Below the pieces are notes generated by a model that saw only the letters and a list, made by a program, of their open reading frames with translations, ran no database searches and was not told the origin of the DNA. Position numbers and translations under genes: made by a program. 64,000 bases of DNA from Antedon mediterranea. Its lineage: Eukaryota > Animalia > Echinodermata. The stretch is from positions 17,591,432 to 17,655,431 of the forward strand of contig NC_092679.1 of the NCBI RefSeq assembly GCF_964355755.1. Direction: 5' to 3'. Positions 4,655 to 60,431 of the stretch are shown here, piece by piece; position 1 is the stretch's first letter; each line of letters begins with the position of its first letter.

Positions 4655-7600
4655 TTTGATTATTTACATTTAGTTAACTTAGGCATAGACCGCAATTTTC
4701 GAACACAATTAGCCTGTTCGTATAGTCTCCTTGTACAACAATCCTTTTGGTTATTCTAAAATACAATGCTAGAAACAGAAGTATTCCTTTACAAAGCTTG
4801 ATTAAAAAACTGATATAAAGTTAGTTTACTGCTTTCAGTACACAATTTAATCCCAAATTACGACTAGTTCCAATCTTGAAAAAGTTTCAGTTTAGAATTG
4901 GAATAATCACAATCCGATTTGCAGTTTCTTCGGCGCATTCATGGTTGTATTCGACAGAGAGTAATCGTGAAAGTGTGTGTGTGTGAGTTTTCCCATCACC
5001 GAGTCGTGACAAATATTTCTATTGATCAAAAATCCATGTGTCGGAAACGTCATCGGCTAAATCCTATAGGACAATCGTTTTTGTTGCTACGTTACGTGAT
5101 ACAATGGACAAATAGTTTGTTTTGTTGTAATGGTTCGTTGGTCTTATTCTTTTAAATGGATTTAGCAAGAATTATCATACAAAGTTGATGCACAGACGAA
5201 AGGCTAAAATGCTGTATTATCAATAAACACTTCATATCAGTTAAACTTTTCGTTATTTCGGATTGAATGTCAAATGTGAACGCAACGCAATGGAGTTGTT
5301 TTCAATTAATTGATAGCAAAATAATATTAATCACGAATTAAACTATAGTTTTCCATAAAGATAATGATCCAATTATACAGTATTAAGAAAGATCTTTAGC
5401 TATATAACTATAAGTTGTTTGTTACGGTGTAGGTTCAAAACTGTATTTCAACAATATAAGCTAAATATTTCGGCAAATATAGCGTTTCATACGTATAAAA
5501 AATCGAAACGCCGACTGGTGGACTACCCGTTTTATTAGTCTCATATTACTATGTGATTTTTTCTTAAATGCTGTAATATATTATATTGATATAGGCCTAA
5601 TTTCATTTTTATATATGTTTTAAGGATAACCATAAAGTTTTATTGAAGATAATTATTTTTTTTTTTGTGAAAAACCTCGATTGTAGAAAGTGACATGTAA
5701 TAATAATATTCAAGAATTCAAATAGAATGTGGATAGATTTATGCTAAGAAGGAAAATACAAATAAATAGTAGGGCGCGTTCAACAGGAGTTACACAGTGT
5801 GACGTCGTGACATGCTAACTCATAGGGACATGTAGAGAGACATGGGAAGTTCTTTCACTCCATGATCAACACAGTTTTGGTGGATTTTAGGTCAAAGCGA
5901 CGATATGCACAATTAGGTCGTAGGTCACAGGTAGTCACAGACCAAAACCTTCTTAATCTATTTATTTAACAGTAACTTAAGTGTGCAAAATGTGGTTTTT
6001 TTTTTACATTAAGCAATACAGACACATAGGGGGCGCTTGACTTCAACAACTGTACCTTCCAAAAGTATAGTATTTGTAATATATTACGTACTCCACAATA
6101 CTCAAATGTAGGTATTTGAAATTAAACACAAATAATGCACTAGTACAATAACAACGCTTGGTGACATCCTGTCAAGTTTTATTAATTGTTTCTTTATGTA
6201 ATTCCCGGCATGCTATTTCCTGCTGGAGTCATTGCCATTTCTTGAAACTTCTTGTTTTTGGCTGCTAACAGAAAATATTTACTAACTGATACAATACAAA
6301 CAAAATGCTCCAATATTTAATCTTTAATCATCTACTACGATGCAGACAAATTGTTGACAAATACAATTTGATCGAACGCAGATCGATATTAAAATACCAA
6401 GAAGTTGGATAATTACCAGCAGTTCATTTAATAGTACTATATCATACTTCTGTACAAACTACTATAAATTAATGGAAATACCCTTTACTGCATTTTCTTG
6501 TTTAACTTCGGTTTAAATTCTTCTTCAATTCAATTCCTGTCCTATGATTTGCATAATAGACAATTATGTCGTTCTGGGACCGCATCATAATACAATATAA
6601 AAATACCTCCAGAAGGTTACAAAAGCCATGACACATCATCTTTTGTTTTAACATACCTCTATATCCTTCCCTCTATATGCAGCAGATATTAGTAAACCAT
6701 TGACTTTGTATTTCTTTTTAACTCATTTATTCATGCTTTTTCCAGTGGAATGTACGGTTTTTACTGTATATGAAACTTACACACTTGGTTTTCATGTCTG
6801 TTTATTTTTTAAATATTCTAATTCAATTATACACCAATACTACAGTTCGCATTTGCATACGGTTTTAAAGCATCATCTAATATTTATTCAAATTAAATAG
6901 AAGTTTACGTTTATTTCTACAATGGTTCGTGTTATGATTAGACAAACATAATGCTAGAAGTAAAATATACACACTTGAAAGACTTTTTCGACAATAGAAA
7001 CGATAAACGAATTTGCCATTTAAACAGATGTTTAGTTTATTTATTGTTATAATTATAAATTACATAAATAGAAAATGCCTGTATGTATTATGAAAGTACG
7101 TTTTTTTTTATATTTTATTTATTTTTTTCTTTACATCTGAAGACTAAATATTCTGAATGGAAGTTTATTCAAGCATAACGACTTTGTTAGGAATGCTGAT
7201 AATATACAAATAATGAATGTTTATGAGTGTAATGGTACAAATAATGGCAGGAGGTGAATGATGAAAGGGTTATACTCAACGAGGCAAAGCCGAGTTGATA
7301 TACCTTTCGTCATTCACCAAATGCCATTATTTGTACCTTTACACGAATAAAAAACATTCAAGTAGTGTACATGGAGGCCTAGTCAGTCGTGGTTATAACA
7401 ATGGTTAACAATGGGGATAGTATAAGACAATAGAGTATATCATTTAACTAGAATTGTTATATAGATTTGTTATATATTAATATACATTATAATATAAAAT
7501 TAATAAATATTAAATAAAAATGATATGGTTATTTAGTTGCTTGTGATGAGAACAAATGGTTTACATTGGTTGAAGTCAATAGGTGTTATGTTTCGGATTA

Positions 7601-8349
7601 TAATACAATGGTTAACATAGGGTAAGGAAGTGAGACAATATAGTTTTTGTAAGATTTGAATTAGTCATGGATTCAATAAAGATGCACCTGGTTAATTAAA
7701 ACTAGTTAATTGAGGTTTTTGCTTGATGTATGCCGACATAATACAAAGACATAAGTTATTTGATCCGGATATTATAACAATGACTAAAACAAAAAGATAA
7801 GAATGAATAGTTTAAATAGCGTTTACAGGCAAAATATAGGCAAAATTGTAAGTATAAGTCAGATGTACAAATTACTGAAAAACAAATTACTAGGAAGTAT
7901 GAAACAATAGTTATTGTGTTTCGGGGCATATAACAATATATGTTAAAGGTGTCTTCCGACATATAATTAATACGGGGTATTTTATAACAAAGACAAAAAT
8001 AAAAAGAAGACTATAATGAAGTGATATAATAAGTATGTCTTGCTTGATCTTTGGCGACATAATCCAAAGACATAAGGCATTTTCTTCCGGATATTTAGGA
8101 TTTGAAAATAAAGGTTATTTAAGTATGTACAATTAAGTAAATAAAAGGTAATCTTCTGATGTCATGCATAAATTAATTTGTTATGTTTAAATATCGGGGG
8201 GGGGGGGTATTATTTGAAATTCTATGTCAGTGTTTTCAATTACATCGAAGTCACTCAAACTCTAGTACTAGTTCCAAAGTATTACCGTTACACGAGGTTA
8301 AAAGATTAATTCTAACGTGCATACCGGTAATGAACAATAATTTGAAAAC

Positions 8350-8806
8350 AGCAGTCTTAGCGGTAACGAGGAATTTTTGTTAGAAATTCTTGATGACAAC
8401 GATGAATTGGTAAGTTGAATCAATTTGTACAAGAAAAAAAAAAGAAATTTACGTATATTATTTTCCAAATGTTATTAAGATTTAATTTGTTCTGTCTGTT
8501 ACATGGGGTCTTGTTATTTAATTTTCAGATTCGATGTATAGAAGAGTTAATTGATGATCAGAACGAATTATGTAATGAAATGGTAAGTTACTATTTCTAT
8601 AAATTTATTTTTAAAATGGTAATAATATATGATATTTAGTCTAATATAAACAACATTTTGTATTACAGTACGGTATTTTGATTGAAAGTAGTAATAACGA
8701 AAGGGAAGAAACACTTCAATTAGAGAATGACATGGCAGTTGCAGAAATTTGCCGCATTGCAAGAAACAAAAGAGGTAATTTAGACGAAGAAGAAAATGAT
8801 TTATGA
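8350..8806 (+). pseudogene. Spliced small acidic protein gene fragment (left arm): exons ..-8409, 8529-8582, 8669-8806; 5' part disrupted or not identified
   Basis: GTAAGT donors at 8410 and 8583, and acceptors ttttcag (8528) and tattacag (8668), all phase 0. They join EEFLLEILDDNDEL|IRCIEELIDDQNELCNEM|YGILIESSNNEREETLQLENDMAVAEICRIARNKRGNLDEEENDL*. Upstream in-frame stops and no clear ATG. Confidence 0.55.
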
Positions 8807-8823
8807 GTATGATTGCACTTCGA

Positions 8824-8909
8824 CCAATGTTCCGACAGGAAATACAACAATGACAATTGGCTGAAACAAATTTAGTAAATGCCGAATGTAATCCTTTGAC
8901 TGTATATAA
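8824..8909 (+). promoter_or_regulatory. Putative Pol II promoter of the 233-aa ORF (CCAAT boxes and TATA)
   Basis: CCAAT at 8824, ATTGG at 8856 and TATATAA at 8903-8909, about 90 nt before ATG 8994. AATAAA at 9827-9832 follows the stop. Confidence 0.5.
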
Positions 8910-8993
8910 CTCTCGATTATTTTGTAATCTTTACCTCATTCTACAACGCTACAGCGCTCGACAAGACAGACCAAAAACCAACAACTAGTTACT

Positions 8994-9695
8994 ATGGTTT
9001 CCGTGATTGAAATCATTGATCTTACTATGGACTCTGATGTCGAAGAAGATGTTATATATATAAGCAGTGATTCGGAATTTGAAGACGATTTTACAGCAGA
9101 GGAGGAGGAAGAGATGAGGGAAGAGATGGGGGATATGACGTGTTTAATGGCGATTCAACCCCCACCTCCAATGAACGTTGATTTCAATAATGTATCTAAT
9201 ACTGAAGAAGACGAACATTATATATCGAGAATAATTTCTGAAGAGGAGAGGATTGTATACGACGACACGTCATCGGTAGTTGACTACCACCTATTTCTGG
9301 CAAGAAAAGCCGATGTAGAAGATGAGGTAGAAGATGGGGTGTTTGCGGAAGAGTACCTGAACCCTGTGCTGGAGGCGGAGATTAAGAAAGAAACTACCGA
9401 ACTTGAGTACAAAGAAATAATGAGAACAATTGAGAAGGTTTTCATAGAAGAATTTATATTCATTCTGAAGGACATGGTTGAACGTTATAACTTTCACGGC
9501 TCAAGATATGAACAACTCCTAACATTTTTTCGACCAATTCTGGCATTGAAACTTGTGGACAATAGCGCTACCCATTTTGAATGGGCGCTAAACTACTTTC
9601 ATTTACGTTGTATAAATGTTGATGCGTTTGCTAAAGCCATAAAGTTGATTACAAATGATTCAGAACTTTTTAATAAGATTCTTTACCAATTGTAA
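8994..9695 (+). CDS. Intact acidic 233-aa Polinton accessory protein with N-terminal SIM-like motifs (left-arm copy)
   Basis: Longest ORF class in the window, ATG start and single exon. N-terminus VIEIIDLT..VIYISSDSE, acidic middle, predicted helical C-terminus. Confidence 0.75.
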   Translation: MVSVIEIIDLTMDSDVEEDVIYISSDSEFEDDFTAEEEEEMREEMGDMTCLMAIQPPPPMNVDFNNVSNTEEDEHYISRIISEEERIVYDDTSSVVDYHLFLARKADVEDEVEDGVFAEEYLNPVLEAEIKKETTELEYKEIMRTIEKVFIEEFIFILKDMVERYNFHGSRYEQLLTFFRPILALKLVDNSATHFEWALNYFHLRCINVDAFAKAIKLITNDSELFNKILYQL

Positions 9696-9948
9696 TTTGT
9701 ACAAATTTAAAATAATATCTTAACACTTTTCTAATTAATGTTACATATTTTTATAATTCTTATTTCTTTTCGGTAAATTTATTATTATTATGGTTGTAAA
9801 TTATATTGAAATAGAATATGTGTTAAAATAAAGGTTGTGGTTTTTCTTTTAATAGCAACAACAACGAAAATGAATTTGATCTTTGCGTGTTATTTAAGTA
9901 TTTTATTTATTTTTTAAATTTTCATTTGGGTGAATGAGGGTAATGAGT

Positions 9949-10188
9949 ATGGATGAGTACTTAAGAAAAGTATATTACGATCCTAAGCATCCTGATAGTT
10001 TTGGTGGTGTGGACCGACTTTATCAAAATGTAAAATACGATTTAAATATTACCAAGAGACAAGTTCAAGACTGACTGAGCAAGCAAGATACATATACATT
10101 ACACAAATCCATTCAACGTAAATTCAAACGAAACTGGGTACTTGTAAGTGTTATTGATGAACAATGGGGAATGGATTTGGAAAAATAA
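9949..10188 (+). pseudogene. Polinton/Maverick retroviral-like integrase N-terminal remnant (left arm)
   Basis: Manual translation gives MDEYLRKVYYDPKHPDSFGGVDRLYQNVKYDLNITKRQVQD*LSKQDTYTLHKSIQRKFKRNWVLVSVIDEQWGMDLEK*. This fits the YYDP..SFGGV..LY / WL..QDTYTLHK / IDEQW..DL signature. Internal TGA at 10072-10074; truncated just after the first catalytic Asp. Confidence 0.88.
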
Positions 10189-10200
10189 CGTGTATAAAAT

Positions 10201-10345
10201 TTGATTCAGACAAACTGTTTGACTTTAAATTTCCAAAAATCAAAGGAAGTCAATTTTGAAATAGTTGGTAGCATGGTACAAGGAATCGGACTGGAAAAAA
10301 TAACAACAACTAATCCTAACAAAATAACCCGTAAACCAAAATCTC
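10201..10345 (+). pseudogene. Probable C-terminal fragment of Polinton protein-primed DNA polymerase B (left arm)
   Basis: CLTLNFQKSKEVNFEIVGSMVQGIGLEKITTTNPNKITR resembles the pPolB C-terminal pattern GfTLNf.nS..iNFe.vk.lV....kItv.NP.KItR. Recognised by eye only. Confidence 0.55.
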
Positions 10346-11449
10346 ACTCTCTACCATTCAAAAATGATGTAGCGATTTTTTCAAGCGGTATTGTCATGAA
10401 CGTATTGAAAAGAAAATAGTTTTATTGTCAATGATTTGTCAAGTGTTTTATTTTAATTTCAATTACTGTTGTATTGTATTTAGTTTTACCCGTTCATGTT
10501 GGCATGATCAATATTTGCTCAAACTCCATTTTATCGTTATGTTTGTAGTATTTTATAGATTCCCGATCATCGTAATAATGATATAACTAGAATTCGTAAC
10601 CGTGTGTTAGATTCCACGCGTATTATATACATATTGTCTTACTTTAATTCCTTCTCTCGTTATTCACCCGATGTAGTTTGATCAAACAATTGTACCTGAG
10701 CCTGAAAGGTTAGTTGTTATGGTACAAGGAATCGGCCCGGAAAATAATTTGTTTTCTTTTCTGTTAAATTATTATTATGTTTGTGAATTGTGTATTGCAA
10801 TAGATTTGTTTAATGAAATTAAATTAATTAGGCCTATGTTTTGACTTAATTTACTGTCAGTGTAAATTTTTTAAAGTAGTTTTCCTACTTTAATTCACGG
10901 TAAATTTATTTATCGACTTAATTTAATTTGTTTTCTTTTCTGTTGTTGTTAAATGTAATTGCAAACACACGTAATAAATGATTGTGATTATAAATATTCT
11001 GTTTACTTCTTTTAATTTTAAACAGTACAATAGATCTGTAATGTAAAGTTATATTTTATATATAATAAGTAATATTACAAAAATAAACATACAAAATGTA
11101 TAAAGCATAGATTAATTAAATTTAAATACAATTTCTTTATTTCAAAATGAATTTCATTTTCTACGTGTTTTCAATTTTAAATCTTTTAAGAAAGACACAA
11201 TACGTACTGCTAAAAAAATAAAACGCACACAAAAGAAAACAAATTTGAGACGCACGATATGTAACGACGGTTTCAATAAAAAGGCATATTATAAATGTAT
11301 TTTTACCAAATTTATAAAGTAAAGGGTTATTATTGAGAAATATACATTTTAGATAAATGATAACACATCTAAAATTAATTAGAGAGATCAATACAATATG
11401 GTGTTCATAATAATTTGTTTTGATGACTAGAGGAAACATCTGAAGACAT

Positions 11450-11885
11450 TCAACAAAAAACAAGCGTTAACACCATACCAGTCACTAAGAATGCTACTAC
11501 TCTGAAAAAAACATCTCCCTTCCAGCACAGAAACAAATTCTGAACGAAAATAAAAAATAAAAATAATTAGTAAACGAAACACGCGCATTATAAATAAAAT
11601 GAATAATTTAAGAAAAAAAAAAAGAAACATACTAACCGATTTATCGTCATTACGAAGTTCAAATAACGAAAACTTTTCCTTGAAAAATTCACAAGAGACA
11701 CGTTTTACATTTTCTAACTGCATTTCAGTGTCACATTGTTTCGCAACACATGTACATACAACGAGTCCTGTCACAAATCTGCCGACATTTATTTTTTTAT
11801 CGCTCATCATTTGTTCTAATACATAATACAGCGCTTCCGAAGAAATATCTTTACACAATTCTAACACATTAAAATTGTTTTCCAA
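11450..11885 (-). pseudogene. Bcl-2-family-like gene, 5'-truncated, two exons (11885-11637, 11539-11450), in the palindrome spacer
   Basis: BH1-like VLEQMMSDKKINVGRFVTGL. A GTTAGT donor at 11636 and a pyrimidine-rich acceptor ending CAG at 11540 splice in frame to NLFLCWKGDVFFRVVAFLVTGMVLTLVFC*, a C-terminal hydrophobic anchor. Confidence 0.7.
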
Positions 11886-12668
11886 CTTTTAAATTTAATT
11901 AATCTATGCTTTATACATTTTGTATGTTTATTTTTGTAATATTACTTATTATATATAAAATATAACTTTACATTACAGATCTATTGTACTGTTTAAAATT
12001 AAAAGAAGTAAACAGAATATTTATAATCACAATCATTTATTACGTGTGTTTGCAATTACATTTAACAACAACAGAAAAGAAAACAAATTAAGTTAAGTCG
12101 ATAAATAAATTTACCGTGAATTAAAGTAGGAAAACTACTTTTACAAATTTACACTGACAGTAAATTAAGTCAAAACATAGGCCTAATTAATTTAATTTCA
12201 TTAAACAAATCTATTGCAATACACAATTCACAAACATAATAATAATTTAACAGAAAAGAAAACAAATTATTTTCCGGGCCGATTCCTTGTACCATAACAA
12301 CTAACCTTTCAGGCTCAGGTACAATTGTTTGATCAAACTACATCGGGTGAATAACGAGAGAAGGAATTAAAGTAAGACAATATGTATATAATACGCGTGG
12401 AATCTAACACACGGTTACGAATTCTAGTTATATCATTATTACGATGATCGGGAATCTATAAAATACTACAAACATAACGATAAAATGGAGTTTGAGCAAA
12501 TATTGATCATGCCAACATGAACGGGTAAAACTAAATACAATACAACAGTAATTGAAATTAAAATAAAACACTTGACAAATCATTGACAATAAAACTATTT
12601 TCTTTTCAATACGTTCATGACAATACCGCTTGAAAAAATCGCTACATCATTTTTGAATGGTAGAGAGT

Positions 12669-12813
12669 GAGATTTTGGTTTACGGGTTATTTTGTTAGGA
12701 TTAGTTGTTGTTATTTTTTCCAGTCCGATTCCTTGTACCATGCTACCAACTATTTCAAAATTGACTTCCTTTGATTTTTGGAAATTTAAAGTCAAACAGT
12801 TTGTCTGAATCAA
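12669..12813 (-). pseudogene. Mirror copy of the probable pPolB C-terminal fragment (right arm)
   Basis: ORF 12595..12813 is identical in translation to 10201..10419. Confidence 0.55.
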
Positions 12814-12825
12814 ATTTTATACACG

Positions 12826-13065
12826 TTATTTTTCCAAATCCATTCCCCATTGTTCATCAATAACACTTACAAGTACCCAGTTTCGTTTGAATTTACGTTG
12901 AATGGATTTGTGTAATGTATATGTATCTTGCTTGCTCAGTCAGTCTTGAACTTGTCTCTTGGTAATATTTAAATCGTATTTTACATTTTGATAAAGTCGG
13001 TCCACACCACCAAAACTATCAGGATGCTTAGGATCGTAATATACTTTTCTTAAGTACTCATCCAT
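12826..13065 (-). pseudogene. Mirror copy of the integrase N-terminal remnant (right arm)
   Basis: Reverse complement of 9949-10188, including the same premature TGA. Confidence 0.88.
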
Positions 13066-13318
13066 ACTCATTACCCTCATTCACCCAAATGAAAATTTAA
13101 AAAATAAATAAAATACTTAAATAACACGCAAAGATCAAATTCATTTTCGTTGTTGTTGCTATTAAAAGAAAAACCACAACCTTTATTTTAACACATATTC
13201 TATTTCAATATAATTTACAACCATAATAATAATAAATTTACCGAAAAGAAATAAGAATTATAAAAATATGTAACATTAATTAGAAAAGTGTTAAGATATT
13301 ATTTTAAATTTGTACAAA

Positions 13319-14047
13319 TTACAATTGGTAAAGAATCTTATTAAAAAGTTCTGAATCATTTGTAATCAACTTTATGGCTTTAGCAAACGCATCAACATTT
13401 ATACAACGTAAATGAAAGTAGTTTAGCGCCCATTCAAAATGGGTAGCGATATTGTCCACAAGTTTCAATGCCAGAATTGGTCGAAAAAATGTTAGGAGTT
13501 GTTCATATCTTGAGCCGTGAAAGTTATAACGTTCAACCATGTCCTTCAGAATGAATATAAATTCTTCTATGAAAACCTTCTCAATTGTTCTCATTATTTC
13601 TTTGTACTCAAGTTCGGTAGTTTCTTTCTTAATCTCCGCCTCCAGCACAGGGTTCAGGTACTCTTCCGCAAACACCCCATCTTCTACCTCATCTTCTACA
13701 TCGGCTTTTCTTGCCAGAAATAGGTGGTAGTCAACTACCGATGACGTGTCGTCGTATAAAATCCTCTCCTCTTCAGAAATTATTCTCGATATATAATGTT
13801 CGTCTTCTTCAGTATTAGATACATTATTGAAATCAACGTTCATTGGAGGTGGGGGTTGAATCGCCATTAAACACGTCATATCCCCCATCTCTTCCCTCAT
13901 CTCTTCCTCCTCCTCTGCTGTAAAATAGGCACCAGTCATAGCTAGTATGTCTTCGTCTTCAAATTCTGAATCACTGCTTATATATATAACATCTTCTTCG
14001 ACATCAGAGTCCATAGTAAGATCAATGATTTCAATCACGGAAACCAT
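13319..14047 (-). CDS. Intact acidic 242-aa SIM-motif accessory protein (right-arm copy)
   Basis: Near-identical to 8994..9695, with an in-frame 27-bp extra segment and two amino-acid substitutions (V/L, S/I). Confidence 0.75.
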   Translation of the reverse strand: MVSVIEIIDLTMDSDVEEDVIYISSDSEFEDEDILAMTGAYFTAEEEEEMREEMGDMTCLMAIQPPPPMNVDFNNVSNTEEDEHYISRIISEEERILYDDTSSVVDYHLFLARKADVEDEVEDGVFAEEYLNPVLEAEIKKETTELEYKEIMRTIEKVFIEEFIFILKDMVERYNFHGSRYEQLLTFFRPILALKLVDNIATHFEWALNYFHLRCINVDAFAKAIKLITNDSELFNKILYQL

Positions 14048-14234
14048 AGTAACTAGTTGTTGGTTTTTGGTCTGTCTTGTCGAGCGCTGTAGCGTTGTAG
14101 AATGAGGTAAAGATTACAAAATAATCGAGAGTTATATACAGTCAAAGGATTACATTCGGCATTTACTAAATTTGTTTCAGCCAATTGTCATTGTTGTATT
14201 TCCTGTCGGAACATTGGTCGAAGTGCAATCATAC

Positions 14235-14695
14235 TCATAAATCATTTTCTTCTTCGTCTAAATTACCTCTTTTGTTTCTTGCAATGCGGCAAATTTCTGC
14301 AACTGCCATGTCATTCTCTAATTGAAGTGTTTCTTCCCTTTCGTTATTACTACTTTCAATCAAAATACCGTACTGTAATACAAAATGTTGTTTATACAGT
14401 ATTAGACTAAATATCATATATTATTACCATTTTAAAAATAAATTTATAGAAATAGTAACTTACCATTTCATTACATAATTCGTTCTGATCATCAATTAAC
14501 TCTTCTATACATCGAATCTGAAAATTAAATAACAAGACCCCATGTAACAGACAGAACAAATTAAATCTTAATAACATTTGGAAAATAATATACGTAAATT
14601 TCTTTTTTTTTTCTTGTACAAATTGATTCAACTTACCAATTCATCGTTGTCATCAAGAATTTCTGACAAAAATTCCTCGTTACCACTAAGACTGC
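14235..14695 (-). pseudogene. Mirror copy of the spliced acidic IxCxE gene fragment (right arm)
   Basis: Reverse complement of 8350-8806 with the splice sites retained. Confidence 0.55.
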
Positions 14696-15195
14696 TGTTT
14701 TCAAATTATTGTTCATTACCGGTATGCACGTTAGAATTAATCTTTTAACCTCGTGTAACGGTAATACTTTGGAACTAGTACTAGAGTTTGAGTGACTTCG
14801 ATGTAATTGAAAACACTGACATAGAATTTCAAATAATACCCCTCCCCCCCCCCCGATATTTAAACATAACAAATTAATTTATGCATGACATCAGAAGATT
14901 ACCTTTTATTTACTTAATTGTACATACTTAAATAACCTTTATTTTCAAATCCTAAATATCCGGAAGAAAATGCCTTATGTCTTTGGATTATGTCGCCAAA
15001 GATCAAGCAAGACATACTTATTATATCACTTCATTATAGTCTTCTTTTTATTTTTGTCTTTGTTATAAAATACCCCGTATTAATTATATGTCGGAAGACA
15101 CCTTTAACATATATTGTTATATGCCCCGAAACACAATAACTATTGTTTCATACTTCCTAGTAATTTGTTTTTCAGTAATTTGTACATCTGACTTA

Positions 15196-18100
15196 TCTAT
15201 ATATAAATTTACGTAAGGGCAAAATTCGGTAAATCGCGCCTTACTTCTAGAATTTTCACTCGATGGTATGTAAAGTTGGTTCGTACTTTCGGTACTGATT
15301 TTAACCGCCTGATGTAACCCTGTTTACTAATTAAATTGAGTTAAATAATTAGTTATTGACGATTAAAACGAATTTAGGTTAAACGATTTGCCCCAAATAG
15401 GGGTGTTTTCCGATCGTGGTATACACTGTCTAATGGATGTCCGTCTTGAAAAATACCCGCCAAAAAAATGCGAGGAGGCTTCGCATTTTTCTATCTCCTC
15501 CTACGATAATTGTTTTTAATTGCTGAAAACCGGTTGAACAGCTAGAGTACACCATCATAATGTTGAAGACAGGCCGATTTTCTTTAAAAAATACTATTTT
15601 GATAGATTTAATATACGATTATACAAATGTATTGATTTGCGATGAATGGAACATCCCAATCTCTCAGTCTGCCAGAGTTTGGTTTAACACAAGTACTGTA
15701 GGTAAATTTATGAGCCCTTGAACACATACGGTAGGTAAATATATGGGCCCTTTGAGAATAAACTTGCAATACTTTGACAATACTGTAAATACCTATTAAC
15801 TATTTTTGGTCCTCATTTGAATCGAGCATTTCTTAGAATGTTCGTACTGTTAGATGTAATATAAAAATATATACAAATAAACTTTATTACTGAGACTGTG
15901 GATAGGCTCTACTGTTAGATATACAAATAAACTTTATACTGACAGTTCCTTCTCAACGTTTGTATTAATTAATAATTACCAAAAATATAAACGTCGTAGT
16001 GGTGTATCGTGACATGTACTTTAATATTTCAATTGATTATGACAGTGATAGTTTTAACAAAGTATTAAATCGCAAATGTTTTAGGCCTACTGTATTTAGA
16101 GGTATATTATTTATAGGCCTATAAAACATGAACAAAATATTTCGTTACTCAGTGGATAAAGAATATATTTAAAAATTGTTCCTCTTTGTACCTATCCGCT
16201 TTCCCATCCCTCAACCCTAATGTTACATAGCGAGGAGGCTTCGCATTTTCTTATCTCCTCCTACGATAATTGTTTTTAATAGCTGAAAACCGGTTGAACA
16301 GCTAGAGTACACCATCATAATGTTGAAGACAGGCCGATTTTCTTTAAAAAATACTATTTTGATAGATTGCTAGAGTACACCATCATAATGTTGAAGACAG
16401 GCCGATTTTCTTTAAAAAATACTATTTTGATAGATTTAATATACGATTATACAAATGTATTGATTTGCGATGAATGGAACATCCCAATCTCTCAGTCTGC
16501 CAGAGTTTGGTTTAACACAAGTACTGTAGGTAAATTTATGAGCCCTTGGTTTAACACATACGGTAGGTAAATATATGGGCCCTTTGAGAATAAACTTGCA
16601 ATAGGTTCGGAAAATGTTAAAAACCAATTTCTATTATTTGAATCGGTAAACAGTTTCCATTTATTATACATTGATAATGAAACATGAAATATTCCTATTT
16701 ATGTCCCTCGAGGTTCATTACAATTTATATTTAGTAGTCCCACGGACTTCATCTTAGCCACTCCCCCGAGTTCTAAGGCCAAATTTATGATACCCTACTT
16801 TCTATGTAAGTTTAGTTACAGTTAGTTCTTGACGATAATACAACGAATTTAGGTTACACCCTTCGGCCGCGAAAACGTTTCTGTACAAATATGATACCGA
16901 TTGGCTTTATTTCATTCAACAGCGACCATAATCTCGCCAATTACAGGATAGATAAACTATTTTATTATTGATGTGCTTATAAATTAAGACTCATGTAAAC
17001 AGCTTGATTACATCATTTTACAGACAAACGAAACTTTTAAACCTACTGTTTCAATAACTGAGTATAATACTGTATACGTTTTCATAAGTAAGTGCATATA
17101 CATTTTCGTGTTTTCATTGACGAGATTGTAATAGTAACTTCAGTAACTATTACAGTACTTATTTATTATACGATACAAGACAATTGTATCTGACAGGTAC
17201 GTACATTATTCTAAAAAATAAGTCTAGATAGATCCCTTAGGCGTCATAAATCACAGGCCAACAAATCAGTACTCATGACAGAAATTCGACCCAGTTTGGT
17301 TCACACAAATGTTTACAGGAATTTCAACACCACAACCGATGATTTGCCCTAAATATTTAGGTAGACTACAGTTTAATTTTTCACTGAATAGGAGCTTGCA
17401 TTTCCGATTTTCATTTCGCAGAATGTCTAGGTCTATTTATTTAGTTTGGTTCTTATAATATATAAATACAATCAACTTTATTACTGCGGTTCCATCACCA
17501 CCACCACGTGTCGCCCAATTCCCGTACATACATTTCCATTTCTCCCTAATTTCTTTAATCTATATATAAATTTACGTAAGGGCAAAATTCGGTAAATCGC
17601 GCGTTATTTCTAGAATGTGTACTCGATGGTATATAAAGTTGGTTATAATCTCGGTACTGATTTTAACCACCTGATGTAACCCTGTTTACTAATTAAATTT
17701 AGTTAGATAATTAGTTATTGACGATTAAAACGAATTTAGGTTCAACCATTTGCCCCAAATAGGGGTGTTTTCCGATCGTGGTATACACTGTCTAATGGAT
17801 GTCCTCATGAAAAATACCTGTACACAATAATACGAGGATACTTCGCATTTTCCTATCTCCTCCTACGATAATTGCTTTTAATAGCTGAAAACCGGTTGAA
17901 CAGCTCGAGTAGAGTATCATAATGTTGAAGACAGGCCGATTTTCTTTAAAAAATACTATTTTGATAGATTTAATATACGTTTATACAAATGTATTGATTT
18001 GCGATGAATGGAACATTCCAAATTATTTGGTTTAACCATGCTTGCATACCTCCATGATTTAACACAAGTAGGTCAATTTATGGGCCCTTTGAGAATAAAC

Positions 18101-18965
18101 ATAAATAGTATTGTAAAGCTATACAATACTGTAAATAGGTATTAACCACTTTTGATAGCCATTTGAATCGCAAATTTCTTATTGTGTGCGTTGGTAGGCC
18201 TACTGTTTATTATAATATAAACAAATATACTAATAAACTTTATTACTGTGAGTGTGGGTAGCCCCTACTTTTAGATTATAAACACATAATAATATAATAC
18301 TTTATTACTGACAGTTGCTTCACAACGTTTGTATTAATTAATAATTACAAAAAAATATAAACGTCGTGGTGGTGTATCGTTACATGTACTTTACTATTTC
18401 AATCGACTATGACAGTGACAATTTTAACAGTTATTAAATCGGAAATGTTTTACTCTATTTAGTGTTATGTTATTTATAGGCCTATTAAAAAAAAAACCCA
18501 ACCCTCAATAATGTTAGATACAAAATACAAATTGGGTTTGTTTAAACATTTGGACTCATTTTGTGAGAAGTTTCTCTTTTGGAAGTAATTCGCACGGTGC
18601 TAATTTTGGTTGACTACATAAATACATAAATAAATGTTTTATAGTCATGCGGTACGTAGGCCTACATTTTGAAATCGCCAGTTTTTTTACGCTGAAATTA
18701 CTATGTATTCGATAACCATATGTGGGCACGACCTAGATGGTACGCGAGCGAAGCGAGCGTACCATCTAGTCCACATAAATTAATTGTCCTTTATGGAATT
18801 CAGTATTGGTTTTGTTGTCTCTATTTCTGAATACCCCAATTAGGGGGACACTTCCGTTTTTGTTTAGTGTCCCAAAAAAGTCCCCGTCCGTGGATTCTAC
18901 TGTATTCGAGAACCATCTGTGAGCACCCCTAGATGGTACGCGAGCGAAGCGAGCGTGCCATCTAG
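15196..18965 (+). mobile_element. Non-autonomous Helitron inserted in the right arm
   Basis: Starts TC at 15196 and ends CTAG at 18965 after the hairpin gatggtacgc-gagcgaagcga-gcgtgccatc. It is inserted between A and T with no TSD; the left arm shows the empty site (acttatacttac on the reverse strand). Confidence 0.9.
17559..18769 (+). mobile_element. Second Helitron of the same family nested inside the first
   Basis: The same 5' end tctatatataaatttacgtaagggc occurs at 17559 after an A, and the same hairpin plus CTAG ends at 18769 before a T. Confidence 0.85.
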
Positions 18966-20265
18966 TACTTACAATTTTGCCTATATTTTGCCTGTAAACG
19001 CTATTTAAACTATTCATTCTTATCTTTTTGTTTTAGTCATTGTTATAATATCCGGATCAAATAACTTATGTCTTTGTATTATGTCGGCATACATCAAGCA
19101 AAAACCTCAATTAACTAGTTTTAATTAACCAGGTGCATCTTTATTGAATCCATGACTAATTCAAATCTTACAAAAACTATATTGTCTCACTTCCTTACCC
19201 TATGTTAACCATTGTATTATAATCCGAAACATAACACCTATTGACTTCAACCAATGTAAACCATTTGTTCTCATCACAAGCAACTAAATCACCATATCAT
19301 TTTTATTTAATATTTATTAATTTTATATTATAATGTATATTAATATATAACAAATCTATATAACAATTCTAGTTAAATGATATACTCTATTGTCTTATAC
19401 TATCCCCATTGTTAACCATTGTTATAACCACGACTGACTAGGCCTCCATGTACACTACTCATTCATTATTTTTTTTATATAACATCTAAATAGATTCCTG
19501 TCATTTGAATCAAATTAAAGGTAGCCCTAGCCTGGCCTTCATTTAATTCACATTGGCCTAGCCTAATAATAACAGACCTAGTACACAATAGGTGGCGCTG
19601 TTGAAGTTCAAAGGCAATAGTCCGTAAAAAACAAAATATTTCCAAACGCGAAAACGCGAAAAGATTTTTTTTCCGTACACGAAAAAAAGTACTAGTAAAC
19701 AATCGTTTAATAGTGCGTACTATTGAACGCCATGTGACCCACATTCGTTCAATCAATTGACAGGAATCTATTTAGGTGTTATATAATATCCTTTATAAGT
19801 ATCCTATAAACTTGATTAAAGGGTAGCTCCGGCTTCTACAGAGTCAACTTCTTTGGATCGACAAAAAGAATATTAATTTTTATCTTATCGTAATATTTAT
19901 GTAGCACCATTTTTCCGTTCTGCTTAACCGCTGACGAAAAACAAGTGAGGTTTTTTTTTTATCAATGTTGTTCCAAACTTTTATATTTTATAATAAACAA
20001 TAGAAAGTAGTCCGGAACTACTTTTTAAGCATCCTTTTTTTTTAAACTTGATTAATTACATAATAATACTTTCATGATATTAGTAAAACATTGAAGTAGC
20101 TAAATTAGCATTGTCACCATAGAGATTATAATGTTGTAACTAGTGACAATTCAAGCGTGGCACAATGCTGGTAATTAATTTAATAATGAATATTATACAA
20201 TATAGTGACTGTTAGTTGAATGGAGAGTGCAACAGTCAACGAATAGCAATATTCGTTCCATTTAA

Positions 20266-27160: not shown

Positions 27161-30100
27161 AGTGCTTTTACAAAATAACGAATGGAGTTCAGTTGGCTTT
27201 AGTTTACTTTATTTCAAGGTAAGTGATATTCATCAATAAAACAAAATTTAATTTTCTTAAATTTACAGTAAGAAAATAAACTTCTGGATTTATTTTTTCT
27301 TTTCTATACTATTTGGAACATTTTCTGTAGTTTTTTTGTAAACTTTATATAATTAATTCAGTTTTATCTACTTATAAATAGTAATCCCCGAAACCTTGAA
27401 ATACCGGGATGGTGTCCGGCGGGGGATAGCTTCACCATGTAATATAAGTTCTATTTATTTTTTATTAACTGAAAACATTTCAATGTAAATGTTTTTATAT
27501 GTTTACAAATGACAATAAATTTGCTTGACTTGACTAGTGCATTTTCTTAAAATGTAGTTGAAGTATGGTTTTGTTCAATATGTCAGCAATTTTATGCTAA
27601 TTTTGTTAGGTTAGCAAAGTCCTCCATTGTGGGAGATGACTTACATCCTAGAAACGAGTTATTCTCATTAATACGGAGCGGTCGACGCTATAAATCTATA
27701 TCTACCTAACAAATAGGTCATTGAACAGTTTTTTTCCGTCAGCCATTAGGGCACTCAATGACCAGTAATGTGTGATCAAAGATGAATGCAAAATGTTGTA
27801 TATGTAACTAATTGTATATTTGATTATTTATTAACACTGGAACCAATCAATTTTCTATATATGTATATTTAATGTCGGACAGAATCAAGTATTGTATTGT
27901 TGAAACTCTACTTTTGCGATGATATAGTATTCAATGAAAAAAATACAAATTAAGCAAAAGTTAAGATACTTGCAAAATGCAGAGGGCGTGCTATTAATAT
28001 TTTGGTCTATATTGAAGATACAGATAACTCGAGATTTTAATAAGATTTTGTGATGATGTCACCAATATATCTTTTTCCTGAAATCAATAGGCATGATAGG
28101 TTGGTGTCTATTAGCAAAACTAATCAAGAAATCTGTGGAAGTTATCGTGCAAACTTACAAAAACATTGATACTTATTAGAATGCTTTGGAGCATTTTGCC
28201 AAAGTATTTTATCTTTAAACTTGACATGTAAAACAATAATGTATCGTACAAACTGAGACACATAAAGCAGGTAATAAACATTTAACAAGCAAAATCGTGA
28301 ACGTAAATACGAGCGAAATTAGTTAAAAGAAGAAGAAAAACATCAGAGATAATTTTGATTCCTTAATTAATTTATTTTGCAAATACACAGAATAATTTTT
28401 TTAAAGTCTGGTCACACTCTCGTTATTACGCCTACATCATTTTACACTTACTTACGTACATACTGTATAAAGCGTGGTTCCCACTAGCGACGCAACGCAA
28501 GGACGTAACGCAACGCAAGTGATTGACCAATCACAAGCGATGGCTTATTCGCTTGTGATTGCTAACTGTCTATAACTTCGCTGGTCATTGGTTAAAACGC
28601 TTGCGTTGCGTTTACGTCCTTGCGTTACGTTCTAGTGGGAACCAAGCTTAAGGGATACCCGAGTATGTGTCTTCTGAGTATAGTGGTGTCTCCGAAGAGA
28701 GTGGTTCTATACTGTCCATAGAATGCAGTTTCTAGGCTATAGTGTTTTGATATTTGTTTAGATATCTGTAGATTCATTTCATAGACAATGATAATTATGT
28801 ACGACATTTAAATAACCTTTTGACATTTTGACCGTTTTGTGGCAGAATCATCATAATCGTTATAATTGTGACTTACTGGTAACTGACTGGTAACCGCTGT
28901 ATGAACTTACAAATGGAGTAAAACTTTACGTAATTAAACAAGAATTCTGTAATACTATAGACAGTCACATTAATTTCTATTTGATCTTTTATATAAATCT
29001 ATTCATCGTCGTTACACCATAAGTATGATAAATGCGTACTGTACATTAATAGATGAATTAAACGTTATTAATATTAGGGGGTTTTCGATTTGTGGCGACA
29101 CACGACCTGGAACAAGTTGGGACAATTGATGTGTCGTTGGTTGTCGCATGGGCCTCTAGACACAACCAAAACTTCCTTAATATAACGTCCTCGCATGCGC
29201 ACAATTAATTAATAGTCATCGGTCCGACGCGTATTATAAAACTGAATGGTCCTTTTGGAGGCCAAGCAGATACTCGGTTAATGCAAGCGATGTGTATAGG
29301 ATGGTACTCGCTTAAGTTCGCGTAAATTGTTCTGAAAAATATATACCGGTAGTAGAATAACAAATAGCAAATAACCCCAATTTTATTACATATCAAAATG
29401 TGAAAAACTTTCTAGAAAAGATCAGAAAAACATGAAAAACCAATAATATTAAATATTATACTATTTAATACTATATTAAAAACTATTGAAATCCTTAAGT
29501 TTTTTTTAGATTTAGAAAACACCTTAACCAGCAGAATTCAAATTTAGTAATTTTATCTTAAAATACATTCTTAAACTCAGTTAAGTTTAATGTATTTCAG
29601 GTCAAGAAACCATAAACAATATTAATTTAAGGCATACTGAAAAACCCCGTTTTAAGGCAAAGGGAATGCTACATGTCATGCACTATGTCGCCATCCATTT
29701 AATGGTATGTTCACACGTACGACGCAAATAGTAAGGTAATTCACGGATTAAAATACCAAGGTGTTCACACGTACGGTGTACGTTATATTAATAAATTGCG
29801 TTAAGCTCAGTTCCCACGATCGGTTTTTTTCTTCCGTCTTCCAAAGGGACACTGTATTGATTGATGGAAAGTGCCTGTTTCCAGTCACCTTTAGGGTCAA
29901 ATCTATTATTTTAACTGCTCCCTTGTGTATAAAAGAGAGAAAATAGTGACTTATAATTAAACACACAATTCTGAGCCCCCTACTATTTGGTGTGAACAGA
30001 TTGGCATACTATAACTTATTATTATTATTCTTTATTTGGTCCAATTAAAAAAAATACATCAGAAATTCCTCTTATATACACTGCAGAGATAGTAACAAAT

Positions 30101-33100
30101 ATTCATACAAAATACAAATCAAATACAAATGTCGACGATTTCACTCCATTTCGAAGTGAGGAGGACACGAATTGATGTTCGGATGAAAGTATGTGTAAAA
30201 CTGTGGCATGACGGCGAAAAAAATTGTTGTTCCTCTCTTCTCATAGGCCTATATGGTTTTAATCTCTCTTATTATTTCCTAATTTCTTTTTACTCTCTTC
30301 CCAATTTCATACTAAATGCTGAAAGCGACAAAGAGCGCGCTATATCGGTCCATATTATATAAGACACTGATAATTTGAGGCTTTTGTGACGTCACAAACA
30401 TATATTTTCTGATAATCAATGGATATGTTTTTTATCGTGCAAACAAAATGATATTTAACATGGTTGTCACAAACATTTGCACCGCCCTATTTTTAATACT
30501 TTACAAAACGATGTTATTTTTGATATTATAACATTATTTCCCAACCTGCAGACGACAGGTTAATTTAATTTTATGTTGACCAATTCCATACTTTAGCCTA
30601 ATAAAGTTTTATCGAGGTTAAACATACGAATTATCAACACATTAAACATTTCAGTTTGTTGCTTTCAAGCTTTTCCATTTTTTTTACCTTTTCAATTACA
30701 TTGAATTTGAAGAAAATTAATATTTAACCAAAAGCGGTCTATATCTTGTGGGGTCTTGTACATACAACTTGTGTTAACATTTATAATCTGTGTTTAGTAG
30801 CGTCAGAGGACGCCAATTCTATAACAGCTTTTTTATCGCCTGCTTTGTACAATGATTTGATAATACCACGTATATGTGAAAAACTCATATCGTTCTTTAA
30901 TTAATATGTATACATTTTTATTACGTCCTTCCTAGAAATGTATATAAAACTCATCGAACTCACGAACCTTTGCACTCGCCCTTTTGTTATATTCTACAAA
31001 ACGATGTTATTTGTGATATTATAACATTATTTCCCAACCTGCAGAAAAAAGGTTACTTTAATTTAATATTGACAAATTTCATATTTTATCCTAGTTTTTA
31101 TCGAGGTCAACCCATTGGCCTAAATTTCAGTTCGTTGCTTAGGTTTTTTGTGGTGTTTTTTTTTCAATTTCTTACATTGAATTTGAAGAAAATAAATATT
31201 TATTGAATGAATGAGTGAGTGTTAAGTTTAAACTTAAAAAGGGCTCACTATATGAGAATGTTTACCAGGCGCATTGAGTGCTTTTACAAAATAACGAATG
31301 GAGTTCAGTTGGCTTCAGTTTACTTTAGTCTCAAGGTAAGTGATATTCATTATCCCCGAAATCTCGACTAAGAAATACCGGAATGGTGTCCAGCGGGGGA
31401 TAGTTTATTACCATTAGTTAGGGTCTAATGTAAAGCACCTAGATGGGTCAGTTACCCATTAGGCGCTATATAAATATTGTTTATTATTATTATTAATATC
31501 AAAAAAACAAAATTAAATTTTCTTAAATTTGCAGCAACAAAATAAATTTCTGGATCAATTTGTTCTTTTCTATTTGGAAATTCATATAATTAATTCAGTT
31601 TTATCTACTTATAAATAGTAATCCCCGAAACCTTGAAATACCGGGATGGTGTCCGGCGGGGGATAGCTTCACCATGTAATATAAGTTCTATTTATTTTTT
31701 ATTAACCGAAAACATTTCAATGTAAATGTTTTTATATGTTTACAAATGACAATAAATTTGCTTGACTTGACTGGTGCATTTTCTTAAAATGTAGTTGCAG
31801 TATGGTTTTGTTTAATATATCAGCAATGTTATGCTAATTTTGTTAGGTTAGCAAAGTCCTCCATTGTGGGAAATGACTTACATCCTATAAACGAGTTATT
31901 CTCATTAATACGGAGCGGTCGACGCTATAAATCTATATCTACCCAACAAATAGGTAATTGAACAGTTTTTTTTCCGTCAGCCATTAGGGCACTCAATGAC
32001 CAGTAATGTGTGATCAAAGATGAATGCAAAATGTTGTATATGTAACTAATTGTATATTTGATTATTTATTAACACTGGAACCAATCAACCAATCAAACTG
32101 AAACACATAAAGCAGGTAATAAACATTAATAACAAGCAAAATCGTGAACGTAAATACGAGCGAAATTATAGTTAAAAGAAGAAGAAAAACATCAGAGATA
32201 ATTTTGATTCCTTAATTAATTTATTTTGCAAATACACAGAATAATTTTTTAAAAGTCTGGTCACACTCTCGTTATCACGCCTACATCATTTTACACTTAT
32301 TTACGTACATGCTGTTGTATAAAGCGTGGTTCTCACTAGCGACGCAACGCAAGGACGTAACGCAACGCAAGTGAATTGACCAATCAAAAGCGATGGCTTA
32401 TTCGCTTGTGATTGCTAACTGTCTATAACTTCGCTGGTCATTGGTTAAAACGCTTGCGTTGCGTTTACGTCCTTGCGTTACGTTCTAGCGTTACGTTCTA
32501 GTGGGAACCAAGCTTAAGGGATACCCGAGTATGTGTCTTCTGAGTATAGTGGTGTCTCCGAAGAGAGTCACGAGAGTGGTTCTATACTGTCCGTAGAACG
32601 CAGTTTCTAGGCTATAGTGTTTTGATATTTGTTTAGATATCTGTAGATTCATTTCATAGAAAATGATAATTATGTACAACATTTAAATAACCTTTTGACA
32701 TTTTGACCGTTTTGTGGCAGAATCATCATAATCGTTATAATTGTGACTTACTGGTAACTGACTGGTAACCGCTGTATGAACTTACAAATGGAGTAAAACT
32801 TTACGTAATTAAACAAGAATTCTGTAATACTATAGACAGTCACATTAATTTCTATTTGATCTTTTATAGAAATCTATTCATCGTCATTACAGCATAAGTA
32901 TGATAAATGTGTACTGTACATAAATAGATGAATTAAACGTTATTAATATTAGGGGGTTTTCGATTTGTGGCGACACACGACCTGGAACAAGTTGGGACAA
33001 TTGATGTGTCGTTGGTTGTCGCATGGACCTCTAGACACCACCAAAACTGTCTTAATATATAACGTCCTCGCATGCGCACAATTAATTAATAGTTATGTCA

Positions 33101-34996
33101 TCGGTCCGACGCGTATTATAAAACTGAATGGTCCTTTTGGAGGCCAAGCAGATGTATAGAATGGTACTCTCTTAAGTTCGCGTAAATTGTTCTGAAAAAC
33201 ATATACCGGTAGTAAAATAACAAATAGCAAATAACCCCAATTTTATTACAGATCAAAATGTGAAAAACTTTCTAGAAAAGATCAGAAAAACATTTAAAAA
33301 AACAATAATAATAAATATTATACTATTTAATACTATATTAAAAACTATTGAAGTTTTTTTTTTAGATTTAGAAAACACCTCAACCAGCAGAATTCAAATT
33401 TAGTAATTTTATCTTAAAATACATTCTTAAACTCAGTTAAGTTTAATGTATTTCAGGTCAAGACATGGAAACATAAATAATATTAATTTAAGGCATACTG
33501 AAAAACCCCGTTTTAAGGCAAGTGTATGCTACATGTCATGCACTATGTCGCCATCCATTTAATGGTATGTTCACACGTACGACGCAAATAGTAAGGTAAT
33601 TCACGGATTAAAATGCCAAGGTGTTCACACGTACGGTGTACGTTATATTAATGAATTGCGTTAAACACACAAGTCCAAGTTTGAGCCCTTACTATTTGGT
33701 GTGAACAGATTGGCATACTATAACTTATTATTATTATTCTTTATTTGGTCCAATTAAAAAAAATACATCAGAAATTCCTCTTATATACACTGCAAAGATA
33801 GTAACAAATTATACATACAAAATGCAAATACAAATGTCGACGATTTCACTCCATTTCGAAGTGAGGAGGACACGAATTGATGTTCGGATGAAAGTATAAT
33901 GTGTAAAACTGTGGCATGACGGCGAAAAAAATTATTGTTCCTCTCTTCTCATATATGCTTTTAATCTCTCTTATTATTTCTTAATTTCTTTTTACTCTCT
34001 TCACAATTTCGCTGAAAGCGACAAAGGGCGCGCTACTTAATATTTCGGTCCATATTATATAAGACACTGATAATTTGAGGCTTTTGTGACGTCACAAACA
34101 TATATTTTCTGATAATCAATGGATACAGTATGTTTTTTATCGTGCAAACAAAATGATATTTAACATGATTGTAATGTTTTATCACAAACATTTGCACCGC
34201 CCTATTTTTAATATTTTACAAAACGATGTTATTTTTGATATTATAACATTATTTCCCAACCTGCAGACGACAGGTTAATTTAATTTTATGTTGACCAATT
34301 CCATACTTTAGCCTAATAAAGTTTTATCGAGGTTAAACATACGAATTATCAACACATTAAACATTTCAGTTTGTTGCTTTCAAGCTTTTCCATTTTTTTT
34401 TACTTTTCAATTTCATACATTGAATTTGAAGAAAATTAATATTTAACCAAAAGCGGTCTATATCTTGTGGAGTCTTGTACATACAACTTGTGTTAACATT
34501 TATAATCTGTGTTTAGTAGCGTCAGAGGACGCCAATTCTATAACAGCTTTTTTATCGCCTGCTTTGTACAATGATTTGATAATACCACGTATATGTGAAA
34601 AACTCATATCGTTCTTTAATTAATATGTATACATTTTTATTACGTCCTTCCTAGAAATGTATATAAAACTCATCGAACTCACGAACCTACGAACCTTTGC
34701 ACTCGCCCTTTTGTTATATTCTACAAAACGATGTTATTTGTGATATTATAACATTATTTCCCAACCTGCAGAAAAAAGGTTACTTTAATTTAATATTGAC
34801 AAATTTCATATTTTATCCTAGTTTTTATCGAGGTCAACCCATTGGCCTAAATTTCAGTTCGTTGCTTAGGTTTTTTGTGTTTTTTTTCTTCAATTTCTTA
34901 CATTGAATTTGAAGAAAATAAATATTTATTGAATGAATGAGTGAGTGTTAAGTTTAAACTTAAAAAGGGCTCACTATATGAGAATGTTTACCAGGC
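27161..34996 (+). repeat. Tandem segmental duplication (27161-31270 and 31277-34996)
   Basis: Both units start agtgcttttacaaaataacgaatggag and end gagaatgtttaccaggc. The duplicated spurious ORFs 28625/32491 and 30970/34697 confirm the pairing. Confidence 0.92.
28471..28648. mobile_element. Harbinger-type MITE (second copy near 32323-32514)
   Basis: TIR agcgtggttcccactag / ctagtgggaaccaagct with TAA TSD. Confidence 0.75.
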
Positions 34997-45054: not shown

Positions 45055-45056
45055 TT

Positions 45057-45574
45057 ATAGTCCAGTAAAATATCACCTTCACCATTGCATAACGTTAGTA
45101 GTCAACGAGATTCTCACCGTAGGTTCTAAACATTATGTAAAGATCATTTATTGATGTTGCGTCGCGTAAAAGTTGGGATTTGTGGAGAAAATGAAGTTTT
45201 TATACGCAGTTTTTGCTTCCTTTCGTCGTGGTTTGTTTTCATCGAAAAATGACGTCATGGGGCATAAGTGAATGACACGCCATTGTCGACATTTGCGTTC
45301 GTATTAAAAAGTGAATTTTAAATGTACGAATATGGTATTAATTATCTGTATTACATTGTATTATTATGTATCACATATATAACAAGTCATTTTGATAAAA
45401 AATAAGTCAAATAAATATGAAAAACAAAGGAAAATTGTGATTGTAATTGTGATCCCAACTTTTACGCGACGCAACATCAATAAATGATCTTTACATAATG
45501 TTTAGAACCTACGGTGAGAATCTCGTTGACTACTAACGTTATGCAATGGTGAAGGTGATATTTTACTGGACTAT
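45057..45574. mobile_element. MITE with near-perfect TIRs of about 120 bp
   Basis: atagtccagtaaaatatcacc...aaagttgggat is mirrored by atcccaacttt...ggtgatattttactggactat. Confidence 0.85.
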
Positions 45575-59848: not shown

Positions 59849-60431
59849 CATATTGATCTCCTAGTTATATTGACCCCTAGTTATATTGACCCTCGAGTTA
59901 TATTGATCCCCTAGTTATATTGACCCTCTAGTTATATTGACTCTCTAGTTATATTGATCCTCTAGTTAAATTGATCCTCTAGTTAAATTGATCCACTTGT
60001 TATATTAACCCTCTAGCTAAATTGATCCTCTAGTTATATTGACCCTCTAGTTATATTGACCCTCTAATTATATTGACCCTCTAGTTATATTGACCCTCCA
60101 GTTATATTGACCATCAGTTATATTGACCATCAGTTATATTGATCCTCTAGTTATATTGACTCTCTAGTTATATTGACCATCAGTTATATTGACTATCAGT
60201 TATATTGATCCTCTAGTTATATTGATCCTCTAGTTATATTGACCCTCTAGTTATATTGACCCTCTAATTATATTGACCCTCTAGTTATATTTACCCTCTA
60301 GCTATATTTATCCTCTAGTTATATTGACCCTCTAGTTATGTTTACCCTCTAGTTATATTGACCCTCTAGTTATATTGATCCTTTAGTTATATTGATCCTT
60401 TAGTTATATTGACCCTCTAGTTATATTGACC
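59849..60431. repeat. Minisatellite of about 17 bp (TAGTTATATTGACCCTC)n
   Basis: More than 30 contiguous units with no unique spacers. Confidence 0.95.

Follow-up and report, generated by a model that had tools for sequence, protein, structure and literature searches.

Cargo genes of nematode Mavericks lie between the left terminal inverted repeat (TIR) and the integrase gene (10.1101/2022.07.12.499685). Among the accessory genes of adintoviruses are Bcl2, IAP and Oncoid (PMC8502044), and in Fig S2 of that paper the label Adintoc5:Bcl2 is printed ahead of Integrase; SUMO, a host tag with a part in gene silencing, receives 0 mentions in its main text and the accessible part of its supplement. 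Adenovirus E1A relies on the word EVIDLT to bind Ubc9, and it changes PML bodies (PMC5030357). SUMO-dependent repression targets incoming DNA-virus genomes (PMC4907222, PMC4276917), and recruitment that depends on SUMO-interacting motifs (SIMs) drives the silencing of incoming viral DNA (PMC4907222). The I/V-DLT core binds SUMO2/3 and is the SIM of PIAS1 (PMC4907222), and phospho-SIMs have been described for PML and Daxx (PMC4276917). Among plant transposons, counter-silencing proteins are known, such as VANC of the Arabidopsis VANDAL elements.

The literature searched, which excluded subscription journals, contained no description of a SIM-bearing Polinton protein, nothing on a Polinton with a death effector domain (DED) and nothing on Adintoc5 by name. 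Host-manipulating accessory genes of Polintons are already known, and the one at the locus described here carries SIM-type motifs, falls outside the Oncoid definition and has no detectable relative. The locus was found in a window of 64,000 nucleotides of Antedon mediterranea, the whole stretch of DNA that was analyzed. Its sequence supports an accessory gene carried by a Polinton, the product of which has two textbook motifs of the SIM type within an acidic arm.

Anatomy of the element and its cargo slot

The gene is contained in a Polinton/Maverick derivative of 12.1 kb (7361-19459; mean GC 31%), ending in TIRs with AGTAGT..ACTACT termini. Its main features are as follows.

7355..7360, no strand: left copy of the target-site duplication (TSD), a 6-bp hexamer identical to 19460-19465
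7361..7854, plus strand: left TIR, 494 bp, starting with AGTAGT, 99.8% complementary to 18966-19459
8341..8806, plus strand: remnant of a small, putatively spliced acidic gene, with predicted exon pieces ..8409, 8529-8582 and 8669-8806, all in phase 0
8824..8941, plus strand: candidate promoter, with CCAAT at 8824, TATATA at 8903 and an Inr-like TCATTC at 8936
8994..9695, plus strand: intact orphan open reading frame (ORF), 233 aa, 27.5 kDa, pI ~4.2
9827..9832, plus strand: AATAAA as a candidate poly(A) signal, weak, with 0.46 occurrences expected in 200 nt
9949..10185, plus strand: N-terminal remnant of a putative Polinton-type integrase, with one internal stop and cut after ~79 codons
11427..11888, minus strand: Bcl-2-like ORF (match to Pfam PF00452 with E 1.2e-4, its 23 bits falling short of the curated threshold of 31.4)
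11888..15196, minus strand: inverted duplicate of 7854-11126 (98.6% identical in 3309 alignment columns), in which the twin ORF lies
14047-13319, minus strand: twin ORF, 242 aa, with 3 point differences from ORF 8994..9695 and an indel of 27 nt that preserves the frame
18966..19459, minus strand: right TIR, pairing with the left TIR
19460..19465, no strand: right TSD copy, the same hexamer as 7355..7360

Long inverted ends with AGT-repeat termini and a 6-bp TSD are the signature of Polintons/Mavericks, and judged by its ends the element is Polinton-type. No Pfam match to PolB, packaging ATPase, protease, capsid or integrase was obtained in the six frames of the element read with X, a search that frameshifted remnants could escape, and the copy was treated as non-autonomous. 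This is consistent with the proposal of the sequence-only reading that the neighbouring core genes are destroyed, the integrase remnant being recognized only by eye, as a probable Polinton-type N-terminus, with no Pfam rve match. The place where this remnant ends is bridged by contigs of two coded organisms, B and C, so the cut is common to the family. Together with the intact ends and the TSD, the shared cut reads as that of a non-autonomous family that would be mobilized in trans.

Rfam gave no match inside the element. Older internal duplications, 84-98% identical, occupy its right part (15195-16126, 16227-16603 and 17558-18490), in which no gene family was recognized. A short imperfect hairpin element, over which the read depth was very high in each of the four runs compared, adjoins the left end (7199-7351); it is likely a high-copy MITE, into or beside which the Polinton inserted.

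ORF 8994..9695 is the longest plus-strand frame of the element, with 255 aa from stop to stop vs. 99 for the next, and the chance of such an open frame in DNA of 31% GC composition is 7e-9. The intact ORF of 233 codons previously read from the sequence is real. Its openness in both arms of the duplication had also been counted in its favour; as one arm is an inverted copy of the other with 98.6% identity, the twin frame adds no separate evidence. The start of the duplication falls precisely on the left TIR's inner edge, and contigs of three other runs (X5, X6 and X7) end their match at 11887, so the junction seems particular to the window copy. A recent rearrangement and an assembly artefact are both possible origins, and the structure could have arisen from template switching in replication or from assembly.

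The ORF sits in the interval from the left TIR to the integrase-like remnant and has a GC content of 38%, vs. the element mean of 31%. With this position, the raised GC and a neighbour gene with predicted introns, it has the characteristics of Maverick cargo and occupies the known Polinton cargo slot. It resembles in these three respects the nematode Maverick cargo genes WASP and KRMA (10.1101/2022.07.12.499685). Unlike these, the orphan protein shows no enzyme or ubiquitin-like domain and no detectable host-gene origin, and its ORF is more, not less, conserved than its own flanks. With respect to adintoviruses (PMC8502044), it is similar to their accessory genes in being a small non-core gene of short linear motifs and CK2 sites, and it shares with the Adintoc5:Bcl2 label the slot ahead of the integrase and a Bcl-2-like neighbour.

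The start context of the ORF is strong. The CCAAT, TATATA and AATAAA words proposed earlier as promoter and poly(A) signal are indeed present, but such words abound in an element so rich in AT, where 200 nt contain 0.38 CCAAT, 0.89 TATA and 0.46 AATAAA; the spacing of TATA and the Inr-like TCATTC upstream of the ORF is rarer (shuffle p 0.005).

Two further accessory genes, absent from the sequence-only reading, were new in the element. The Bcl-2-like ORF, whose 5' end is cut by the duplication junction, has a hydrophobic stretch near the ORF end and yielded no close relative in the homologue searches. The acidic gene remnant has GTAAGT donors at 8410 and 8583 and acceptors at 8523-8528 and 8663-8668; its putative exon 2 starts with an IxCxE-like word, and stops occur upstream in the exon-1 frame of the window copy. 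By these sequence features it may be an Oncoid-like gene, and the two genes together look like host-interaction genes.

SIM-type motifs in the acidic arm

The N-terminal part of the orphan protein contains the following features.

9003..9026, plus strand: SIM-type motif 1, VIEIIDLT (residues 4-11), of the PIAS/E1A type, compared with VIDLT and EVIDLT
9051..9077, plus strand: SIM-type motif 2, VIYISSDSE (residues 20-28), with an S/D/E tail of the phospho-SIM type and CK2 consensus sites
9381..9392, plus strand: candidate SUMO acceptor consensus IKKE (K131), from a regex scan; a short, common motif

The tandem SIM-type motifs reported by the sequence-only reading were confirmed at both places. 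They contain the (I/V)DLT or psi-psi-x-psi core of SIMs and adjoining acidic or phosphorylatable residues. In 100,000 composition-preserving shuffles, [VI][VI]DLT occurred in 0.2%, a hydrophobic core leading into an S/D/E run in 5%, and both in 0.01% (~1e-4), values that are optimistic because the patterns were picked after the sequence was seen. Residues 1-135 comprise 31% D+E and 5% K+R, while residues 136-233 have an ordinary globular composition; on this basis, the acidic arm is probably disordered. The protein has a net charge of about -37, hydrophobic residues set among D/E runs, and 12 S/T-x-x-D/E sites, which could serve as CK2 acceptors and are common in acidic proteins. Regex and Pfam scans of the 233 aa revealed neither a classical NLS nor a RING or any other catalytic part.

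With regard to cellular proteins, motif 1 fits the I/V-DLT core of PIAS1 (VIDLT; PMC4907222), and motif 2, whose hydrophobic core leads into serines and acidic residues, is similar to the phospho-SIMs of PML and Daxx (PMC4276917). The likeness is at the motif level only, and unlike those proteins, the orphan has no detected SP-RING, RING or other host domain. Like the orphan, E1A with its CR2 (PMC5030357) is an acidic linear-motif protein in which an (I/V)IDLT word precedes S/D/E residues. Unlike E1A, the orphan protein lacks an overlapping LxCxE, a zinc finger and detectable sequence homology; beyond E1A, it adds the second, phospho-SIM-like motif and a predicted helical C-terminal domain. 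Membership of the Oncoids was also considered. According to the definition in PMC8502044, the protein is not an Oncoid because LxCxE, CR1 and paired CxxC are absent, CK2 sites being the shared trait.

The reading that we favour, with a probability of roughly 0.45, is that of an E1A-like host-interaction hub, whose acidic arm would dock SUMO or Ubc9 through the two SIM-type motifs and thereby blunt the SUMO-dependent repression of the element. The joint rarity of the motifs in shuffles (1e-4) argues for it, as do the SUMO2/3 binding of the (I/V)DLT core and its identity as the PIAS1 SIM (PMC4907222), the use of EVIDLT by E1A for Ubc9 and PML bodies (PMC5030357), the acidity of residues 1-135, the cargo-slot position and the host-interaction-like neighbours. 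Under such a scheme, the TATA/Inr promoter would drive transcription of the orphan gene and CK2 would phosphorylate SIM2. SIM1 and SIM2 would then engage SUMO or Ubc9, their distance of 16 residues possibly suiting poly-SUMO or multi-SUMOylated targets. The protein might compete with, or redirect, SUMO-dependent repressors at the element DNA, and its helical C-terminal domain could recruit a partner. From this analysis, an anti-silencing role would be a reasonable inference. In its proposed role, the protein is comparable to VANC, as a transposon-encoded counter-silencing factor; unlike VANC, whose function has been shown, its own is deduced, and the element class, kingdom and sequence are different.

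Speaking against the SUMO-hub reading are copies with a frameshift in codon 22, the weak pN/pS signal and the lack of an NLS, RING or catalytic part in the protein. Further, acidic-hydrophobic words occur in activation domains too. The protein could act on the element's own promoters as an acidic activator of transcription or as a chromatin adaptor; the apparent SIMs would then be activation-domain words and SUMO incidental, and the helical domain may bind DNA or polymerize in a SAM/PNT-like manner. The net charge and the hydrophobic residues within D/E runs agree with this, and residues 189-222 gave a weak phmmer match to the PNT/SAM domain of ETV6. However, that match was a sum across engineered triple repeats, each stretch contributing 5.6 bits; it was lost with a longer query and was absent from further searches of PDB sequences and of Pfam with sub-stretches. 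In addition, an activation domain has no need of a word as specific as the exact (I/V)IDLT, and we regard the activator as quite unlikely.

As a small, soluble candidate with two mutable motifs, the orphan makes testable the question of whether Polintons fight SUMO silencing like adenoviruses.

The C-terminal domain and the search for relatives

The C-terminal part of the protein is predicted to form one domain.

9399..9692, plus strand: predicted all-helical C-terminal domain, with helices at residues 136-164, 170-185, 192-205, 209-219 and 223-232 in two low-confidence AF2 models

The sequence-only reading had proposed, from a by-eye pattern, a possible death-fold C-terminus, and modelling followed by a fold search as its check. 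Single-sequence AF2 models of residues 133-233 (pLDDT 52) and 108-233 (pLDDT 48) agreed in their helices, five or six in number, although at low confidence. A death fold did not occur among the fold matches listed, and neither did a Bcl-2-like one. Foldseek with the same models gave no match at E < 1 (model 1 was left out of the comparison with PDB), and the best VIA matches, with Z 7.1 (rmsd 3.1, 74 aligned) and Z 6.4 (rmsd 3.3, 61 aligned), were generic helical hairpins. Likewise, neither the whole protein nor five sub-stretches had a Pfam match to death-effector or Bcl-2 families. The RxDL motif, characteristic of DEDs, was absent from the 233-aa protein by regex. Taken together, these results do not support a death fold.

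A related possibility is that the protein counteracts cell death: its C-terminal domain would adopt a diverged version of the Bcl-2-like or death-effector fold, its SIM arm would do no more than localize it, and it would work with the neighbouring Bcl-2-like gene in keeping host cells alive. The all-helical prediction is compatible with this, as is the presence of a Bcl-2-like gene within the same element. The register of the C-terminus with BH4/BH3-like helices or a DED was drawn by eye and is not a test. Against this possibility stand the lack of a Pfam match to either family, the missing RxDL and the first predicted helix (136-164), an unbroken stretch of 29 residues without Gly or Pro at a place where the DED has two helices. 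Moreover, comparing the protein with the Bcl-2-like ORF of the same element brought out no similarity (E 0.26). Even with the Bcl2 and IAP genes of adintoviruses and the place of Adintoc5:Bcl2 ahead of the integrase in its favour (PMC8502044), we hold an anti-cell-death function to be unlikely. The Bcl-2-like reading of residues 113-233 and the SAM/PNT reading are equally unproven.

No homologue of the orphan protein was found in a 5.8-billion word search of proteins (of near lengths, and with the C-terminal part vs. longer proteins), by phmmer against 1.84 billion proteins, or in viral contigs, phage records, PDB sequences, Pfam and PHROGs. Matches to Skp1 (E 1.4 and 0.48) were discarded as chance hits to an acidic patch, and a metagenome locus (L001) as a chance 8-residue word inside a bacterial enzyme gene. 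Neither the integrase remnant nor the two motifs retrieved adintovirus loci from the viral contigs.

Copies of the ORF in public runs

Parts of the stretch are contained in 20 runs from 8 studies, which are filed under four coded organisms and a label for an aquatic metagenome; none of the 20 is on record as RNA, and copies were examined in 6. Copies of the ORF region were near-identical, ~1-3% apart (97-99% identity). In run X3, the summed contig depth was far higher over the ORF than over the flank, a value that is not a copy number and gives only a hint that the region belongs to a multi-copy family. Nearly all contigs differ from the window at 8998 and 9223 (codons 2 and 77), so the window copy bears private changes.

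The in-ORF differences listed among copies (n = 20) comprise all 18 of a four-run comparison and 2 more from the 40 listed, out of 244, in a second comparison. Eight were synonymous, 12 non-synonymous and none a stop; 20 neutral changes were computed to yield no stop 40% of the time. None alters the core of either SIM. Among these differences, pN/pS was 0.37-0.53, with p 0.03, 0.07 or 0.13 depending on the transition bias assumed, and significance was reached only without favoured transitions. The dN/dS comparison suggested in the sequence-only reading thus revealed a synonymous excess, but as a weak signal. Per base, differing places had about half the density in the ORF stretch (801 nt) that they had in the remaining 4200 nt of 7000-12000 (8/801 vs. 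101/4200 in X3 and 8/801 vs. 85/4200 in X7), where an adjoining high-copy repeat inflates the outside rate and the two sets of comparisons used different thresholds. Purifying selection on the orphan ORF is suggested, and this weak constraint, with 8 of 20 differences synonymous, no stop and both SIM cores unaltered, argues for the protein as a SUMO-docking hub. The frameshift noted above is a 1-nt insertion in codon 22, inside SIM2, present in contigs of two of four runs (X9, at about one third of the depth, and X13).

These data also bear on a neutral explanation, in which a once-useful accessory gene of an autonomous parent, or a captured host fragment, is carried as a passenger by a young non-autonomous family and is already decaying. 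With copies only ~1-3% apart, an open frame is no proof of selection, frameshifted copies exist, and the adjoining accessory genes are broken in the window copy. On the other hand, there is the synonymous excess, the ORF is less variable than its flanks, and the family spread with a dead integrase, its cut bridged by the contigs of B and C, and yet mostly kept the frame. We consider a mere passenger improbable; it would be one more orphan in a known cargo slot, and it does not exclude the SUMO-hub reading for the parent element.

A broader and doubtful proposal, built on the sequence features of all three accessory genes, is that animal Polintons carry an early module like adenovirus E1 but of unrelated parts, namely a tandem-SIM anti-silencer, a binder of pocket proteins through IxCxE and a Bcl-2-like blocker of cell death, and that the non-autonomous family would keep the SIM gene under selection as self-protection from silencing. 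In that case, an animal DNA transposon would encode a counter-silencing factor aimed at SUMO.

Several other repeats were observed elsewhere in the window. A tandem duplication of ~3.8 kb, 93-97% identical, spans 27335-31270 and 31573-34996. A 182-aa ORF on the minus strand (38065-38613) resembles by eye a C-terminal piece of a LINE retrotransposon ORF2 and has no Pfam match, and nested inverted repeats at 43410-45574 form a foldback-like element. Finally, a 17-bp minisatellite and a trinucleotide-like low-complexity repeat are located at 59778-60523 and 61682-62300, the latter yielding two spurious ORFs.
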